Shown one piece after another: positions 654 through 8,150 of a DNA stretch of 8,150 nucleotides. The stretch is from assembly GCF_048403405.1 (NCBI RefSeq), contig NZ_CP183134.1. One strand, given 5' to 3'. The translations under genes and the position numbers were made by a program. Origin of the DNA: Escherichia coli (lineage in GTDB: Bacteria; Pseudomonadota; Gammaproteobacteria; Enterobacterales; Enterobacteriaceae). Numbering within the stretch: position 1 is the first letter of the stretch; each line of letters begins with the position of its first letter. The notes under the pieces are model-generated. The model ran no database searches. It had not been told where the DNA came from and saw only the letters and a list, made by a program, of their open reading frames with translations.

Positions 654-831
654 TTCTGCCGTAATGCCTTTTTGCAGTTTTCTTTCAGCCCCGCAGGGCG
701 CACACAATCGAAACGGAGTGGAGATTGTATAAGTGCGCATTTCGTGATTTGCCGTGCATTATGCCAGCTCAGTTTTTAAACTACCAGTGACGCGCTAAAA
801 TGCGATTTTTCATCGCGCATGGAGTTACATC
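654..831. other. Putative oriT in the mobA-mobC divergent intergenic region (nic-like motif TAAGTGCGC at 730-738, inverted repeat ACAATC 704-709 / GATTGT 723-728)
   Basis: The motif gtATAAGTGCGCat resembles the MOBQ/RSF1010-type nic core (GTAAGTGCGCCCT as I recall it) and is immediately preceded by an inverted repeat. Position between divergent relaxase and accessory genes matches RSF1010-type organisation. Confidence 0.5.
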
Positions 832-1086
832 ATGAGCAGAACGCTCGAACAGAAGATTGCTGATGCTGAGGCGAGATTACAGCGCCTGAAGGCGAAGAGC
901 CGGAGCCTGGACACAGCGCAGAAGGTCATTGTGGGTGCAGCATTGCTGGCAAAGGTCAGAAAGCCGGAGGAAGTGCAGTTGCGAGCCTGGTTACTCCAGT
1001 TCCTGAAGGCAGAGGTGACACGGCAGGCTGATGTGACGCGAATACTGCCGCTGATTAACGAGCTGGAGGCGCTGCCAGAGCAGTGA
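832..1086 (+). CDS. mobC: MobC-like relaxosome accessory protein (84 aa)
   Basis: Complete ORF with ATG at 832 and GGAG Shine-Dalgarno at 821-824. Divergent from mobA across the putative oriT. The segment QKVIVGAALLAKVRKPEEVQLRAWLLQFL resembles RSF1010 MobC (RKVLVGAMILAKV...) from memory. Confidence 0.65.
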   Translation: MSRTLEQKIADAEARLQRLKAKSRSLDTAQKVIVGAALLAKVRKPEEVQLRAWLLQFLKAEVTRQADVTRILPLINELEALPEQ

Positions 1087-1095
1087 TTGTATCGT

Positions 1096-1155
1096 CCGCT
1101 CGCCGCAGCCCAGCGACCGAGCGTTAGCGAGCGAGTGGGCGAGGAAGCGGAAGTG
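1096..1155. other. ColE1/pMB1-like conserved segment, possible single-strand initiation / primosome assembly site
   Basis: ccgctcgccgcagcccagcgaccgagcgttagcgagcgagtgggcgaggaagcggaagtg is about 85% identical, by eye, to the pBR322/pUC segment ccgctcgccgcagccgaacgaccgagcgcagcgagtcagtgagcgaggaagcggaagag that lies next to the pMB1 DnaA box. Function is inferred, not shown. Confidence 0.35.
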
Positions 1156-1236
1156 AATCAGTCGCCATGTTGAGCACATACGCACGGTTTTTCGACAGGT
1201 GATATGCGCTGAACCCGCATGAATACTGGATTTCCA

Positions 1237-1281
1237 CAGGATTGGAGGGGGTGTATTCGGAATCTTCAATCCTGGTTTTTT
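1237..1281 (+). terminator. Hairpin followed by T6; candidate intrinsic terminator downstream of mobC, or a structured ori element
   Basis: 8-bp stem CAGGATTG (1237-1244) / CAATCCTG (1267-1274), 22-nt loop, then tttttt at 1276-1281. The loop is unusually long for a canonical terminator. Confidence 0.3.
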
Positions 1282-1325: not shown

Positions 1326-1334
1326 TTATCCACA
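1326..1334 (+). promoter_or_regulatory. DnaA box (TTATCCACA, perfect consensus)
   Basis: Exact 9-mer TTATCCACA, directly upstream of the AT-rich region and iterons. Confidence 0.6.
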
Positions 1335-1431: not shown

Positions 1432-1519
1432 GATAGGTGGAGCTTTTGGGGGTGATAGGTGGAGCTTTTGGGGGTGATAGGTGGAGCTTTTGGGGGTGAT
1501 AAGTGGAGCTTTTGGGGGT
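1432..1519 (+). repeat. Iterons: 4 tandem 22-bp direct repeats GATAGGTGGAGCTTTTGGGGGT (the fourth has one mismatch, GATAAGTGG)
   Basis: Perfect head-to-tail repeats at 1432-1453, 1454-1475, 1476-1497 and 1498-1519, immediately upstream of a Rep_3 initiator gene. Confidence 0.85.
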
Positions 1520-1618: not shown

Positions 1619-2320
1619 ATGTCAGATCTGATAGCTTACAAATCAAACGCCCTTATCGAGGCAAGCTACAAGCTCACTTTGCAGGAACAGCGCTTCCTGC
1701 TGGTCTGTATCAGCCGCCTGAAATCCGGAGAAGATTCCCCTTCGCCGGATGAACAAAAAACCATGACCATCACGGCTGCAGAGTTTCATGATGCCTTTCC
1801 TGACATGGGACGGCAGCACGCTGAAGCTAGGCTCAAGGAAGCGATAGATCGCCTCTGGGACAGGTCAGTAATCATCAAGAACGAGGAAAAACGAGAAGAG
1901 TTCCGCTGGGTGCAGTACCGGGCGCAGTATTTCAAAGGTGAGGCGAAAGTAGAGATCACCTTCTCCGATGCCATCATGCCGTATCTGACACAGCTCAAGG
2001 GGCAGTTTACGCGGGTAGTCGTGAAGAACGTCTCCAGCCTCTCCAGCACCTACAGCATCCGCATTTACGAGCTGCTCCAGCAGTTCCGCAGCACCGGTGA
2101 CAGAACGATAGCTATCGATGATTTCCGAACCATGCTTGCCGTTGAAGATAAATATCAACAATTCAAAGACTTGAATAAGATGATAATCAAGCCAGCCATC
2201 GCCGAACTGAACGAAAAAAGCGATCTGGTTGTAACGGTTGAGACGATCAAAAAGGGGCGCACGGTTGTAGCCCTGCACTTTCGCTTCAAGGAAGACAAAC
2301 AGATCAAGATGACGATCTAG
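1619..2320 (+). CDS. repA: Rep_3-family iteron-binding replication initiator (233 aa)
   Basis: Complete ORF directly downstream of the iterons. N-terminus MSDLIAYKSNALIEASYKLTLQEQRFLLVCISRL and later segments (ITFSDAIMPYLTQLK, YSIRIYELLQQF) resemble pSC101/pPS10-type RepA as I recall them. Weak Shine-Dalgarno. Confidence 0.88.
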   Translation: MSDLIAYKSNALIEASYKLTLQEQRFLLVCISRLKSGEDSPSPDEQKTMTITAAEFHDAFPDMGRQHAEARLKEAIDRLWDRSVIIKNEEKREEFRWVQYRAQYFKGEAKVEITFSDAIMPYLTQLKGQFTRVVVKNVSSLSSTYSIRIYELLQQFRSTGDRTIAIDDFRTMLAVEDKYQQFKDLNKMIIKPAIAELNEKSDLVVTVETIKKGRTVVALHFRFKEDKQIKMTI

Positions 2321-2561: not shown

Positions 2562-4727
2562 TCACATTCCCTGTGACCAACCGCGATCAGGTCTCCTCTC
2601 GGTGGCGTGTGTTCGTGCATCTTCCTCGCGCCGCCATTCGTCCCAGGTACGATTGAAACCCAGCGAGCGGAACAGATGATCCGGCTGTTTTTCTGGTGTG
2701 TTGACGACAGCAAAAAGCGGTGCCTCACGGGTTTTCAGATGAAACTCCATAAGTTCCGGTGCAGGTGATATGTGGCTGTCTGCATCATGATTTACGGCAA
2801 CACCATACCCTGCATACCGTAACCCCTTATCGGTCAGTGCACTGATAACCAGCTGGCTGTTATCGGCTGAGGGAACGGCAAACGCGGGATACAGCGTACC
2901 ATTAAGCCGGACAACACCGCCCAGAGAGTCATCCACGCCCATGACCAGCAAAAGCTGAAGCTGGCGGGTTTCCCGGTCGACAGAACTCATGACCGGCATC
3001 AGCGTCGGTGGCAGACGTCCCTGCGTAAAATCCACCTTCCTTGCTGCCAGTGATGGCATGGCTGGCTGGCGGTCTTCTCCAAGACAGAAAGACTCCGGCC
3101 ATGTCTTCGGCTGGCGGAGATTGCGGGTATGTTGCGGCCATGTCTGGCAAACCTGCGTCAGAAGTTGCTCAAAGGTCGCAGAGGAATAAATACGTTGCAG
3201 TGGTGGATGTTGGCCGATTTCGCTTCGGTCACAGATATAACCACTCCTGTCACGTATTAAATCAACACTCTCAAAGATCCTGGTGCGGTATTTCTCCAGC
3301 TCGTTCCCCCAGAGCGTGTATTCTCCGTTCCGGTTGTGAAGCAGAAGGTAACAAGTCATTTCCCCGTTACCAGGCATGGGAGCCTCGCCATACCCCGTAA
3401 CGACTGCTCTCAGCACCCCTGAATCCATAACGGCATTGTCATTTTTCCTGAGCTGTTCCGCTCGTCGCTCCGCGCGACTACGTTCTGTATCCTCCAGCTC
3501 CTTCCGGCGTAATTCATCTTCACGTTTAAGCAACTGGGCTCTGAGAGCTGCAAGGCCGGATTCCCCCCACTGCTGCCACTGTTTTTCAAATGCCGTCTGA
3601 CTCGCGGGAATGTCCTGTTTCTCCACCTTCCGGTAATGCTGTCGCAATTTTTCCATTTGCTGGCTCAGAGACTGGATTTTTCCCTGCTCACTACGGTATT
3701 CCGGTGCAGCCCATTGCATCAGGGGAATACGGGAAAAACCGGACGAAAACGGCGATGATTTTTTCAGGCTGGCAGCATGGCTCATCGCTTCCTTTCGTTC
3801 GGTGTTCAGCTCTTCCCAGCGTCTGCGCGTCGCCTGCATATCTGCCATCATCGACATGGCGTTACTGGTGAGTTTCCATGCCGCGTTACTGTCCTTCGGC
3901 AACGCTTCGATGATGTCACGTAGTGTGTACGAAGTTGCGTTGTCAGGAAGCCCGATATTCAGAAGGTCAGCCACACGGCGGGCAGGCTCTGTCAGCCCGC
4001 TGTTCCTGAGTTCGGTGCGGGAAATCTGTATTTCCAGGTTAAGCCTGTTAATCAGACGATTCTGTTCGCCGCGTTCTGTTTCGATACCGCGTGTTTCCAT
4101 CGCACAGGCAGACTTTCCGAGGTGAATACCCGGCGTTTTCTCAAGCCCCTGTCGCTCGTATGAACGATGGTCTATCTCTTTCTGATAACCGGCGTTCGCC
4201 AGTGCCCTGTTTGCATGGTCAGCCCATGATGCACGCCACGTCTCGGCATGTGTCCGGTCGTTCCAGTCCCTGACCTTTCCGCCGAACCCCGCAGGTCCGA
4301 CAGCCCTCGTGGTCAGCATAATGTGCGCATGGGGATTTGTTTTATCCATGTGATGGAACGCCACATCAGCAATCATGCCCTGACTGACAAAGTTTTCTCT
4401 GACAAAGGCGAGAACGGTTTCCCGTGCGGCATCCTGCGGCAGTTCGTGGGGGATGGCGAGTTCAATTTCCCGCGCAAGTTGTGAGTTCTTCCGGCGTTCG
4501 GCCTTCTCAACGGCATTCCAGAGTTCGGCACGGTTCGTACACCAGGCAGGGGCTGTCGCGGGGGTCAGAATCACAGCCTCAGCCACACCGCTTTTGCGGG
4601 TGTAGTCGTGAGTCAGTCCGGTACGCTCATCAAGCATTAGTGAACCAGAACGATAGGCAGCAGAAGCAACGGCGCTGTAGCCGTTGCTTCTGGAGATGAT
4701 TTTCATACTGAGATGATAAATCGCCAT
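2562..4727 (-). CDS. mobA: MobA/MobL-family relaxase, MOBQ-like (721 aa from the MAIYHL start; the ORF track extends to an upstream ATG at 4814)
   Basis: N-terminal MAIYHLSMKIISRSNGYSAVASAAYRSG (Tyr at residue 25, as in RSF1010 MobA), histidine motif NPHAHIML, and WADHANRAL, IDHRSYERQG, GIHLGKS, METRGI all parallel RSF1010 MobA motifs. The upstream ATG at 4812-4814 overlaps the nic-like motif and has no Shine-Dalgarno. Confidence 0.85.
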   Translation of the reverse strand: MAIYHLSMKIISRSNGYSAVASAAYRSGSLMLDERTGLTHDYTRKSGVAEAVILTPATAPAWCTNRAELWNAVEKAERRKNSQLAREIELAIPHELPQDAARETVLAFVRENFVSQGMIADVAFHHMDKTNPHAHIMLTTRAVGPAGFGGKVRDWNDRTHAETWRASWADHANRALANAGYQKEIDHRSYERQGLEKTPGIHLGKSACAMETRGIETERGEQNRLINRLNLEIQISRTELRNSGLTEPARRVADLLNIGLPDNATSYTLRDIIEALPKDSNAAWKLTSNAMSMMADMQATRRRWEELNTERKEAMSHAASLKKSSPFSSGFSRIPLMQWAAPEYRSEQGKIQSLSQQMEKLRQHYRKVEKQDIPASQTAFEKQWQQWGESGLAALRAQLLKREDELRRKELEDTERSRAERRAEQLRKNDNAVMDSGVLRAVVTGYGEAPMPGNGEMTCYLLLHNRNGEYTLWGNELEKYRTRIFESVDLIRDRSGYICDRSEIGQHPPLQRIYSSATFEQLLTQVCQTWPQHTRNLRQPKTWPESFCLGEDRQPAMPSLAARKVDFTQGRLPPTLMPVMSSVDRETRQLQLLLVMGVDDSLGGVVRLNGTLYPAFAVPSADNSQLVISALTDKGLRYAGYGVAVNHDADSHISPAPELMEFHLKTREAPLFAVVNTPEKQPDHLFRSLGFNRTWDEWRREEDARTHATERRPDRGWSQGM

Positions 4728-4905
4728 TTCTGCCGTAATGCCTTTTTGCAGTTTTCTTTCAGCCCCGCAGGGCGCACACAATCGAAACGGAGTGGAGATT
4801 GTATAAGTGCGCATTTCGTGATTTGCCGTGCATTATGCCAGCTCAGTTTTTAAACTACCAGTGACGCGCTAAAATGCGATTTTTCATCGCGCATGGAGTT
4901 ACATC
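4728..4905. other. Putative oriT, copy 2 (nic-like motif at 4804-4812)
   Basis: Identical to 654-831. Confidence 0.5.
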
Positions 4906-5169: not shown

Positions 5170-5229
5170 CCGCTCGCCGCAGCCCAGCGACCGAGCGTTA
5201 GCGAGCGAGTGGGCGAGGAAGCGGAAGTG
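5170..5229. other. ColE1/pMB1-like conserved segment (possible primosome assembly site), copy 2
   Basis: Identical to 1096-1155. Confidence 0.35.
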
Positions 5230-5355: not shown

Positions 5356-5399
5356 GCAAAACATTGTTTTTATTGGATTTTTATTTTCAGCACCCCAAG

Positions 5400-5408
5400 T
5401 TATCCACA
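5400..5408 (+). promoter_or_regulatory. DnaA box TTATCCACA, copy 2
   Basis: Identical to 1326-1334. Confidence 0.6.
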
Positions 5409-5505
5409 GGCTCGCCGTTAAGTTTTTAAGATCTTATTTTTAGATCTTTTTTTTTAAAACCTTTTTAGGTCTTGTAACCACATGATTTTAAAGGTGTTCT
5501 GGCGA
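5409..5505. other. AT-rich origin region with two GATC sites, copy 2
   Basis: Identical to 1335-1431. Confidence 0.5.
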
Positions 5506-5593
5506 GATAGGTGGAGCTTTTGGGGGTGATAGGTGGAGCTTTTGGGGGTGATAGGTGGAGCTTTTGGGGGTGATAAGTGGAGCTTTTGGGGGT
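5506..5593 (+). repeat. Iterons, 4 x 22 bp, copy 2
   Basis: Identical to 1432-1519. Confidence 0.85.
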
Positions 5594-5614
5594 GTAATCC
5601 ACAGAAAAAAGGGG

Positions 5615-5644
5615 TTGCAAAAAAAAAACTTCCACCAATATGAT
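5615..5644 (+). promoter_or_regulatory. Putative repA promoter, copy 2
   Basis: Identical to 1541-1570. Confidence 0.4.
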
Positions 5645-5672
5645 AGGTGGCGTACAGTAAAAAAACGCCACC
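5632..5672. promoter_or_regulatory. Inverted-repeat operator, copy 2
   Basis: Identical to 1558-1598. Confidence 0.45.
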
Positions 5673-5692
5673 AATAGCAACGAGCAAGCGAA

Positions 5693-6394
5693 ATGTCAGA
5701 TCTGATAGCTTACAAATCAAACGCCCTTATCGAGGCAAGCTACAAGCTCACTTTGCAGGAACAGCGCTTCCTGCTGGTCTGTATCAGCCGCCTGAAATCC
5801 GGAGAAGATTCCCCTTCGCCGGATGAACAAAAAACCATGACCATCACGGCTGCAGAGTTTCATGATGCCTTTCCTGACATGGGACGGCAGCACGCTGAAG
5901 CTAGGCTCAAGGAAGCGATAGATCGCCTCTGGGACAGGTCAGTAATCATCAAGAACGAGGAAAAACGAGAAGAGTTCCGCTGGGTGCAGTACCGGGCGCA
6001 GTATTTCAAAGGTGAGGCGAAAGTAGAGATCACCTTCTCCGATGCCATCATGCCGTATCTGACACAGCTCAAGGGGCAGTTTACGCGGGTAGTCGTGAAG
6101 AACGTCTCCAGCCTCTCCAGCACCTACAGCATCCGCATTTACGAGCTGCTCCAGCAGTTCCGCAGCACCGGTGACAGAACGATAGCTATCGATGATTTCC
6201 GAACCATGCTTGCCGTTGAAGATAAATATCAACAATTCAAAGACTTGAATAAGATGATAATCAAGCCAGCCATCGCCGAACTGAACGAAAAAAGCGATCT
6301 GGTTGTAACGGTTGAGACGATCAAAAAGGGGCGCACGGTTGTAGCCCTGCACTTTCGCTTCAAGGAAGACAAACAGATCAAGATGACGATCTAG
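5693..6394 (+). CDS. repA: Rep_3-family replication initiator, copy 2
   Basis: Protein identical to 1619-2320. Confidence 0.88.
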   Translation: MSDLIAYKSNALIEASYKLTLQEQRFLLVCISRLKSGEDSPSPDEQKTMTITAAEFHDAFPDMGRQHAEARLKEAIDRLWDRSVIIKNEEKREEFRWVQYRAQYFKGEAKVEITFSDAIMPYLTQLKGQFTRVVVKNVSSLSSTYSIRIYELLQQFRSTGDRTIAIDDFRTMLAVEDKYQQFKDLNKMIIKPAIAELNEKSDLVVTVETIKKGRTVVALHFRFKEDKQIKMTI

Positions 6395-6635: not shown

Positions 6636-8150
6636 TCACATTCCCTGTGACCAACCGCGATCAGGTCTCCTCTCGGTGGCGTGTGTTCGTGCATCTTCCT
6701 CGCGCCGCCATTCGTCCCAGGTACGATTGAAACCCAGCGAGCGGAACAGATGATCCGGCTGTTTTTCTGGTGTGTTGACGACAGCAAAAAGCGGTGCCTC
6801 ACGGGTTTTCAGATGAAACTCCATAAGTTCCGGTGCAGGTGATATGTGGCTGTCTGCATCATGATTTACGGCAACACCATACCCTGCATACCGTAACCCC
6901 TTATCGGTCAGTGCACTGATAACCAGCTGGCTGTTATCGGCTGAGGGAACGGCAAACGCGGGATACAGCGTACCATTAAGCCGGACAACACCGCCCAGAG
7001 AGTCATCCACGCCCATGACCAGCAAAAGCTGAAGCTGGCGGGTTTCCCGGTCGACAGAACTCATGACCGGCATCAGCGTCGGTGGCAGACGTCCCTGCGT
7101 AAAATCCACCTTCCTTGCTGCCAGTGATGGCATGGCTGGCTGGCGGTCTTCTCCAAGACAGAAAGACTCCGGCCATGTCTTCGGCTGGCGGAGATTGCGG
7201 GTATGTTGCGGCCATGTCTGGCAAACCTGCGTCAGAAGTTGCTCAAAGGTCGCAGAGGAATAAATACGTTGCAGTGGTGGATGTTGGCCGATTTCGCTTC
7301 GGTCACAGATATAACCACTCCTGTCACGTATTAAATCAACACTCTCAAAGATCCTGGTGCGGTATTTCTCCAGCTCGTTCCCCCAGAGCGTGTATTCTCC
7401 GTTCCGGTTGTGAAGCAGAAGGTAACAAGTCATTTCCCCGTTACCAGGCATGGGAGCCTCGCCATACCCCGTAACGACTGCTCTCAGCACCCCTGAATCC
7501 ATAACGGCATTGTCATTTTTCCTGAGCTGTTCCGCTCGTCGCTCCGCGCGACTACGTTCTGTATCCTCCAGCTCCTTCCGGCGTAATTCATCTTCACGTT
7601 TAAGCAACTGGGCTCTGAGAGCTGCAAGGCCGGATTCCCCCCACTGCTGCCACTGTTTTTCAAATGCCGTCTGACTCGCGGGAATGTCCTGTTTCTCCAC
7701 CTTCCGGTAATGCTGTCGCAATTTTTCCATTTGCTGGCTCAGAGACTGGATTTTTCCCTGCTCACTACGGTATTCCGGTGCAGCCCATTGCATCAGGGGA
7801 ATACGGGAAAAACCGGACGAAAACGGCGATGATTTTTTCAGGCTGGCAGCATGGCTCATCGCTTCCTTTCGTTCGGTGTTCAGCTCTTCCCAGCGTCTGC
7901 GCGTCGCCTGCATATCTGCCATCATCGACATGGCGTTACTGGTGAGTTTCCATGCCGCGTTACTGTCCTTCGGCAACGCTTCGATGATGTCGCGTAGTGT
8001 GTACGAAGTTGCGTTGTCAGGAAGCCCGATATTCAGAAGGTCGAGCCACACGGCGGGCAGGCTCTGTCGGCCCCGCTGTTCCTGAGTTCGGTGCGGGAAA
8101 TCTGTATTTCCAGGTTAGGCCTGTTAATCAGACGATTCTGTTCGCCGCGT
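6636..8150 (-). CDS. mobA: MobA relaxase, copy 2; 5' end runs off the window and carries apparent frameshifts near 8043 and 8071 relative to copy 1
   Basis: Identical to copy 1 up to about 7991. The ORF track ends at a GTG at 8051 because two 1-bp insertions shift the frame. I suspect these are consensus errors at a contig end rather than a true pseudogene. Confidence 0.6.

Follow-up and report, generated by a model that had tools for sequence, protein, structure and literature searches.

Why should a plasmid that replicates from iterons carry, directly behind its mobC gene, a short block resembling the origin region of ColE1- and pMB1-type plasmids? The window, that is, the whole stretch of 8,150 nt of Escherichia coli DNA that was analysed (contig NZ_CP183134.1), raises this question through a block at positions 1096-1155 of the plus strand. 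The first-pass annotation had described this block as about 85% identical to pBR322/pUC, had placed it next to the pMB1 DnaA box in a region associated with primosome assembly, and had suggested recombination between ColE1-family and iteron-family backbones or else a shared single-strand initiation module, for priming of the lagging strand or of the conjugative complementary strand. Our analyses indicated that the block is probably the core of a PriA-dependent primosome assembly site (pas) of the phiX174/ColE1 type, a homologue of n'-pas or ssiA (ssi, single-strand initiation signal), which lies on the plus strand and would serve mainly as an aid to the iteron origin. What was observed is homology, conservation, covariation, polarity and architecture; the dependence on PriA and the occasion on which the site is used we infer from these.

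Similarity of the block to ColE1-type origins

The element and its predicted parts are the following.

1096-1155, plus strand: predicted pas core, ssiA/n'-pas homologue (similarity to the ColE1, pPCP1, pMB1-type and IncI2 copies; covariation; RNAII sense)
1096-1100 and 1146-1150: predicted closing stem, CCGCT pairing with AGCGG
1101-1108 and 1140-1145: invariant internal-loop (unpaired) stretches between the stems, CGCCGCAG and CGAGGA
1109-1139: inner variable hairpin, CCCA (1109-1112) pairing with TGGG (1136-1139)
1156-1242, plus strand: 3' extension of the conserved non-coding element (alignments; 92-95% identity in family members with diverged flanks)
1172-1185, plus strand: motif GAGCACATACGCAC, with GCAC-N-TACGCAC at 1175-1185 and TACGC at 1179-1183 (alignment)
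5170-5229, plus strand: second, identical pas core (period 4074)

The window contains the core twice, being a tandem dimer in which two copies of a 4074-bp circle are joined head to tail (direct repeat period 4074).

Alignment of window positions 1096-1152 with positions 1309-1364 of ColE1 (NC_001371.1) revealed 50 identical nucleotides out of 57 (88%, E 1e-14). The block matched Yersinia pPCP1 at 55/64 positions (86%), an IncI2 plasmid at 53/58 (91%) and the pMB1/pUC-type origins of three vector-like contigs (L045, L100 and L020) at 51/58 (87.9%, E 1e-13), the E-values over these four kinds of copy spanning 1e-13 to 1e-17. The earlier figure of about 85% was thus accurate, and the database check that had been proposed, a comparison with ColE1-family plasmids, returned significant nucleotide similarity (E 1e-13 to 1e-15). 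A search of PLSDB with the block region matched at least 5000 records at roughly 80-93% identity, a number far beyond chance; among the records listed, none carried an annotation under the block match.

In ColE1, pPCP1 and the pMB1-type sequences a DnaA box, TGTGGATAA, starts 38 nt upstream of the block, so that the neighbourhood of the pMB1 DnaA box had been correctly recognised. The RNAI gene was located by Rfam at positions 645-749 on the minus strand of ColE1, and RNAII therefore lies on the plus strand. Relative to the predicted RNA/DNA switch the block starts at +116 in ColE1 and at +102 in pPCP1, and at about 100-125 nt across ColE1-type plasmids. The primosome assembly signal n'-pas/ssiA has been placed at this very position, where it is exposed by extension by DNA polymerase I (Pol I) and has a DnaA box close by (PMC3167613; PMC3640518), and in another ColE1-like plasmid an 82-nt ssi was found within about 60 nt of the vegetative origin, oriV (PMC5935869). 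The displaced, and hence exposed, strand of ColE1-type plasmids has the sense of RNAII, and the plus strand of the window bears the block in the same sense. In all 62 of the 62 loci with a ColE1-like RNAII the block had the sense of RNAII and stood just downstream of it, at offsets of +35 to +127 nt in most loci and of about +300 nt in four (negative offsets reflect circular contigs that wrap around).

The likeness to ssiA of ColE1/pBR322 (n'-pas, the 'H-strand' factor Y site, rriA) includes CCGCTCGCCGCAG, CGACCGAGCG, CGAGGAAGCGGAA and the downstream TACGC motif, as well as the same predicted closing stem and inner hairpin, and a DnaA box is near in both. The placing differs. In ColE1 the site lies on the displaced strand past the RNAII/Pol I origin with the box on its 5' side, whereas in the window there is no RNAII and the site lies about 175 nt 5' of the box TTATCCACA, pointing toward the iteron origin. 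The association of the block with primosome assembly was thus borne out as homology to the ColE1/pMB1 ssiA position, to which hairpin covariation and strict polarity add, and which makes such a function probable.

The same similarity could be read as the scar of a recombination between ColE1/pMB1-family and iteron-family backbones. Besides the match to the ColE1 and pMB1-type origins (86-88% over some 58 nt), the modular build of the plasmid family favours such an event, since its mob module is common with ColE2-type plasmids (about 84% identity) and its iteron/rep modules are exchanged at about position 1395. Nonetheless the block proved to be the sole ColE1-like stretch: beyond its 58 nt no similarity to ColE1, pPCP1 or pMB1-type sequences was detected anywhere in the monomer. 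Rfam, which found RNAI in ColE1 and pPCP1, returned neither RNAI nor any other RNA family in the window, which therefore lacks the RNAI/RNAII control and RNase H/Pol I origin of a ColE1-type replicon. The 20 closest variants of the block interior all (20/20) stood in loci without a ColE1-type RNAII, namely the MOBQ41 family, Col(MG828) plasmids of 1.5 kb, RepL-type and other small plasmids, and the sub-variant found in the window (CCCAGCGACCGAGCGTTAGCGAGCGAGTGGG) occurred in 0 of 64 RNAII-linked copies. Because the block is the only ColE1-like sequence and its closest variants occur only in non-ColE1 replicons, the mosaic ancestry that had been suggested is unsupported, and a constraint on the block far above that on its flanks is unlike a neutral scar. 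We consider this explanation improbable; on the sequence comparisons the block is better described as a portable, strongly selected module of many replicon types than as the trace of a ColE1 ancestor.

The pas variant of the window had its closest relatives (87% identity through window position 1185) in tiny plasmids whose only annotated gene codes for a helix-turn-helix domain protein or RepL. These were NZ_CP081198.1 (L005, 1552 bp, positions 1382-1472) together with similar 1.5-kb Col(MG828) plasmids, a RepL plasmid of 2182 bp (L007) and a plasmid of 3137 bp (L008).

Extent and conserved structure of the element

To collect homologues, one genome per species was scanned with only two invariant anchors specified, CGCTCGCCGCAG ... 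CGAGGAAGCG. The scan returned 120 loci, of which 13 were chance matches in G+C-rich genomes and were removed; several were pUC- or pBR322-like contaminant contigs and the rest were enterobacterial plasmid sequences. Among the roughly 100 homologues the interior between the anchors varied while its ends remained complementary (CTCAT/ATGAG, GTCAT/ATGAC, CCTGT/ACAGG, CTCAC/GTGAG, CTTTGAC/GTCAAAG and ACTGAC/GTCAGT, compared with CCCA/TGGG in the window). The outermost closing pair, formed by the base before CGCT and the base after AGCG, likewise covaried as C-G, G-C or A-T. In an alignment of 30 sequences all five pairs of the inner stem (5/5) were altered on both sides, and the covariation score was 0.223, compared with 0.110 for shuffled alignments (0/500 of which reached 0.223) and at most 0.046 for slid partners. 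A conserved single-strand hairpin, as expected of a pas homologue, is thus supported on comparative evidence. The sequence AAGCGG at 1145-1150 was near-invariant among the homologues, the invariance of AAGCG being imposed by the anchor search pattern and the final G being the base of the covarying outer pair. In the literature of the 1980s this hexamer is reportedly common to n' sites.

Two groups of loci from the scan stand apart. In Pseudidiomarina atlantica (L101, positions 835-901 of a 568-kb contig) both anchors flank a perfect 10-bp inner hairpin, CAAAAACGAA...TTCGTTTTTG, which may be a genuine chromosomal pas-like element or belong to an integrated plasmid. Loci L009, L012, L039, L052, L100, L123, L125 and others are short, often low-coverage contigs of E. 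coli small-plasmid or pUC/pBR322 vector type in assemblies labelled Streptomyces, Cutibacterium, Flagellimonas, Micromonospora, Mycobacterium, Halobacillus and others, and evidently represent contamination of public assemblies.

The conserved element was found to exceed the coordinates first given for it. ColE1-type and other copies have in common a second motif, GCAC-N-TACGCAC, about 30-38 nt past AAGCGG, which makes the element about 90 nt long, with its end at about 1185-1190 of the window. In the plasmid family, constraint on the non-coding sequence covers 1093-1242. Identities to a relative with different iterons and a Rep 76% identical to that of the window (L106) were distributed as follows.

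1096-1155, block: 98%
1093-1242: 97% (95-97% within the family)
mobC: 74%
1243-1325: 64%
iterons: 43%

Positions 1093-1242 are the best-conserved non-coding stretch of the plasmid, which argues that the stretch is functional and not a scar. Outside the ColE1-like part it includes a small hairpin, ATGCG (1204-1208) and CGCAT (1216-1220), of the form ATGCG-N7-CGCAT and also seen in the centroid fold, and a weak (7/9) DnaA-box-like sequence, ATTTCCACA, at 1230-1238; both are almost unchanged across the plasmid family. These may account for some of the 'four DnaA boxes' described in pIGWZ12. A Shigella plasmid of 54 kb (H31) also contains positions 1178-1330 of the window at 96% identity.

The window and over 100 relatives sized about 4.06-4.09 kb (loci L106 and L112 among them) have in common oriT (origin of transfer), mobC, pas, DnaA box and one half of the A+T-rich region, at about 94% identity, after which the relatives switch to other iterons and to a Rep 76-80% identical to that of the window. 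The modules meet abruptly within the A+T-rich region, at about 1395 according to family alignment and a break in BLAST coverage, with 742-1395 conserved and the sequence from 1396 onward swapped. The switch looks like an exchange of incompatibility determinants.

Plasmid layout and the proposed role of the site

The other features of the plasmid are given below.

704-738, plus strand: predicted oriT core, with an inverted repeat (ACAATC, 704-709; GATTGT, 723-728) and the nic core TAAGTGCG (730-737)
832-1086, plus strand: mobC, relaxase accessory protein of 84 aa, divergent from the relaxase gene (open reading frame list; mobC annotation in near-identical plasmids)
1326-1334, plus strand: perfect DnaA box TTATCCACA (sequence scan)
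1335-1431, no strand: presumed unwinding region, rich in A+T and with GATC sites, flanked by the DnaA box and the iterons
1432-1519, plus strand: four tandem 22-bp iterons GATAGGTGGAGCTTTTGGGGGT, the fourth being GATAAGTGG..., at a regular 22-nt spacing
1521-1529: DnaA box with one mismatch, TAATCCACA (sequence scan)
1619-2320, plus strand: rep, Rep_3 initiator of 233 aa (Pfam Rep3_N, E 2.9e-39; Rep3_C, E 6.3e-22; NCBIfam RepM/RepE-like)
2562-4814, minus strand: MobQ-family relaxase (NCBIfam MobQ, 263.9 bits against a cutoff of 200), with a start 29 codons later in the NCBI annotations of near-identical plasmids

Many 4074-bp plasmids of E. coli and Salmonella are 99.9% identical to the monomer, which matched 619 PLSDB records, 410 of them over at least 80% of its length. 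It codes for three proteins, the relaxase, mobC and the initiator. A Rep3_N/Rep3_C initiator, upstream iterons, an A+T-rich region and a DnaA box make up a Rep_3 replicon; a MobQ relaxase, a divergent mobC and an RSF1010-like nic core in between are the features of MOBQ41. The published MOBQ41 group, whose prototype is pIGWZ12 and whose family description is Rep_3-type, matches this layout, and its sister group MOBQ42 combines the same mob module with a ColE2-type replicon (PMC6856555). The sequence thus identifies the plasmid as a MOBQ41/Rep_3 plasmid of the pIGWZ12 family, the relaxase class being taken from the NCBIfam profile and gene layout and the MOBQ4 clade from layout. The first reading of the block as lying beside mobC in an iteron replicon was confirmed; the plasmid also has a MobQ relaxase.

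The two copies of the plasmid in the window are identical across the first 3917 nt. In the last 160 nt or so the second copy (7992-8150) differs from the first (3918-4076) by three A>G substitutions and two single-base insertions, which shorten the relaxase open reading frame to 471 aa compared with 750. The differences look like a read-end or assembly error in a concatemeric assembly and not like biology.

The order found in the window, namely the block on the plus strand, DnaA box TTATCCACA, A+T- and GATC-rich region, iterons and rep on the plus strand, recurs in loci of Intestinirhabdus (L078) and Escherichia (L113). In a further locus (L027) the block and DnaA box are visible before the contig ends, and an Erwinia locus (L053) has the same order except that the DnaA box follows the iterons. 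The initiators of these loci all belong to or resemble the Rep_3 superfamily and are 22-28% identical to the Rep of the window or undetectably similar. No mob gene was seen among the flanking open reading frames of L078 (97-kb contig) or L053 (110-kb contig). The block also stands beside the iterons of an F-type RepE replicon (L126 and L080).

In the ColE2-type plasmid pColE8 (L006), which has a mob module homologous to that of the window, the block is found 123 nt past the rep stop codon; it has the same sense as rep, with the nic core on the other strand, and is inverted relative to the mob module. The 32-bp ColE2 origin is known to lie directly downstream of rep; with the block past rep and opposite the nic strand, the site in pColE8 follows oriV and not oriT. 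The pColE8 block (5363-5417) adjoins the 3' end of mobC (5466-5732), in the orientation opposite to that of the window. The junction between mob and replication modules therefore carries a pas in both families, with a polarity set by the replicon.

Taken together with these layouts, the sequence suggests the following mechanism. When the plus strand becomes single-stranded, 1096-1150 would fold into an imperfect hairpin composed of the closing stem, the conserved internal loop and the variable inner stem, which host PriA would read as a fork-like structure. PriA would recruit PriB and DnaT and load DnaB from DnaB-DnaC onto the plus strand, and DnaG would lay primers. At the origin, Rep and DnaA would open the A+T-rich region at 1335-1431 and unwinding would spread away from the iterons, exposing the plus strand about 150-250 nt to the left; a primer from the site would then be extended leftwards while DnaB travels 5' to 3' rightwards on the plus strand. 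Recognition of a pas of this kind is described as the binding by PriA of a hairpin in single-stranded DNA that mimics a fork, followed by PriB, DnaT, DnaB-DnaC and DnaG (PMC5778457). The mechanism proposed is that of the phiX174 primosome assembly site, to which the likeness is functional only, by way of ColE1.

Several systems offer comparisons. The ssi signals of pHW126, pIGRK and pIGMS31 are likewise ColE1-like modules on other replicon types, acting as non-essential origin accessories, and pColE8 carries the same block as a ColE2-type relative with the mob module of the window. The geometry proposed here is akin to that of the G-site of R1/R100 (a G4-type ssiA), which according to Masai and Arai is reportedly a priming signal a few hundred bp outside the origin opened by the initiator. 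That signal is said to be used once helicase unwinding has exposed it and to give the first primer. It is a primase-only signal that is not known to load DnaB and is unrelated in sequence to the site of the window.

A number of points weigh against the assignment of the block as an origin-accessory pas. The hairpin was derived from the same sequences that were used for its covariation count. Minimum free energies of the block and of 1093-1242 on both strands were no better than those of shuffled sequences (z -0.8 to +0.25), so that folding alone neither supports nor locates a structure, and counts of G-T as opposed to A-C appositions, 5 and 1 in the inner stem and 16 and 17 overall, favour the plus sense weakly. 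The coincidence of the block with the n'/factor Y site mapped biochemically in pBR322, reportedly at about 2350-2420, is presumed. The site of the window lies outside the origin and points toward it, compared with a position downstream on the strand displaced by Pol I in ColE1; with this geometry the model of vegetative replication needs leftward unwinding, which is assumed. Lastly, a similar ssi in pHW126-like plasmids was reported to be dispensable for replication, its loss leading to multimerisation and a raised copy number, so that a modest phenotype would be expected here.

The position of the block behind mobC raises the alternative that the site is mainly conjugative. According to this explanation, MobQ nicks at 737/738, the plus strand enters the recipient 5' end first and the pas arrives after 358 nt, whereupon the PriA primosome of the recipient assembles there and primes a discontinuous complementary strand; such use is compatible with an origin role and would resemble the way in which IncQ plasmids use ssi signals on their transferred strand. 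The nick is predicted to fall between G737 and C738, which puts the start of the pas core 358 nt 3' of nic. RSF1010 (CAGTTTCTCGAAGAGAAACCGGTAAGTGCG/CCCTCCC) has the same 8-nt nic core and the same layout of the upstream inverted repeat; there, cleavage takes place after the final G and the 3' part remains bound to the relaxase (PMC4814116). The RSF1010-identical nic core makes the plus strand the predicted transferred strand. For this plasmid family, oriT has been mapped experimentally to the mobA-mobC intergenic region (PMC6856555). All five MOBQ41-type copies compared (5/5) had the nic core TAAGTGCG and an upstream inverted repeat on the strand with pas sense, 367-403 nt upstream of the block. 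The block moreover stands directly after mobC, within the 742-1395 segment that is conserved while iterons and rep are exchanged, and its position relative to the iteron origin differs from the canonical one in ColE1.

The comparison with other replicons tells against a mainly conjugative site. Block and nic core occupy opposite strands in pColE8 (MOBQ42) and in L008, the plasmid of 3137 bp, and MOBQ42 plasmids nonetheless mobilise well (PMC6856555). Polarity tracked RNAII in 62/62 ColE1-type loci, and large contigs on which no relaxase is adjacent also have the pas-DnaA box-iteron layout. In the IncI2 plasmid the block lies 2.4 kb from the relaxase operon; assuming the usual order of transfer, in which the relaxase gene comes last, the transferred strand would carry the block in antisense. 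We regard a mainly conjugative role as possible rather than probable and favour the origin-accessory role, to which we assign about an even chance. The two uses are not exclusive: complementary-strand synthesis in the recipient could start from this signal too, since it lies 358 nt behind nic on the strand predicted to be transferred. Lagging-strand priming and conjugative complementary-strand priming, the two uses named in the first-pass annotation, are both possible.

The arms of the oriT inverted repeat vary within this group. In L106 the repeat (CACAAACTC...GAGTTTGT) is unlike ACAATC...GATTGT of the window while the nic core TAAGTGCG is the same, and in L008 the arms have yet another sequence. 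The IncI2 copy of the block (pSC2014107-mcr-62k, L003, 4001-4056; 91% identity to the window) is located just after hicAB, about 2.4-2.5 kb from the mobC-relaxase operon, and no replication gene was found within the 8 kb examined around it.

RSF1010/R1162, another MOBQ plasmid, provides a parallel to conjugative use: past mobC, its transferred strand likewise carries single-strand initiation signals, ssiA and ssiB. The order of oriT, mobC and origin in RSF1010 is presumably that of the window. The signals differ in that ssiA and ssiB are recognised by the plasmid's own RepB' primase and not by host PriA, and their sequence is unrelated to the site of the window.

The block might also act as RNA or as duplex DNA, for instance as a terminator or stabiliser of mobC or as a protein-binding site, with no part in priming. 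It is G+C-rich and hairpin-capable, its start is 10 nt past the mobC stop codon, and the pColE8 copy likewise adjoins the 3' end of mobC. That copy is inverted relative to mobC, however, and no particular gene precedes the block in replicons of the ColE1, IncI2, Col(MG828) and iteron types. No T-run was found past the stem, and a promoter and terminator scan of 640-1640 returned nothing at the block, which gives no support to a mobC terminator or to a single-strand promoter of the Frpo type. The invariant unpaired loops and the strict RNAII polarity suit a single-strand signal better, and we judge this explanation very improbable.

Implications for the plasmid family and for iteron replicons

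The kind of element described here is classical, and ColE1-like ssi signals in non-ColE1 plasmids have been known for decades; Nomura et al. in 1991 reportedly described them in ColE2, F, R6K and R100. No mention of a pas or ssi was found in the accessible pIGWZ12/MOBQ4 literature, outside which Zaleski 2006 and 2015 lie, so that an earlier description is possible. The assignment gives a proposed function, predicted from sequence, to the most conserved non-coding 150 nt of very common small mobilisable plasmids of E. coli and Salmonella, a stretch that bore no annotation in any of the records examined, and means that similarity to pBR322 implies neither a ColE1 ancestor nor vector contamination in this plasmid.

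The only part that might interest the specialist is the recurrent coupling of the block, in a fixed polarity, to unrelated iteron origins, which was seen at a handful of loci. We propose, tentatively and with clearly less than even confidence, that the ColE1-type pas is a portable module repeatedly recruited, in one polarity, to the DnaA-box side of unrelated Rep_3-superfamily iteron origins of Enterobacterales, and that PriA-dependent helicase loading or first-primer synthesis is general at such origins. If this is true, a PriA step would be a general and largely unrecognised part of initiation in theta replicons regarded as dependent on DnaA and Rep only, and a single site in MOBQ41 plasmids would be used for vegetative initiation as well as for complementary synthesis on the transferred strand. 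Should the pas-DnaA box-iteron layout be functional, these plasmids would depend on the host replication-restart proteins PriA, PriB and DnaT, with consequences for host range, multimer formation and the control of copy number, and the site would offer a simple handle on how iteron origins gain their first primer and second helicase.

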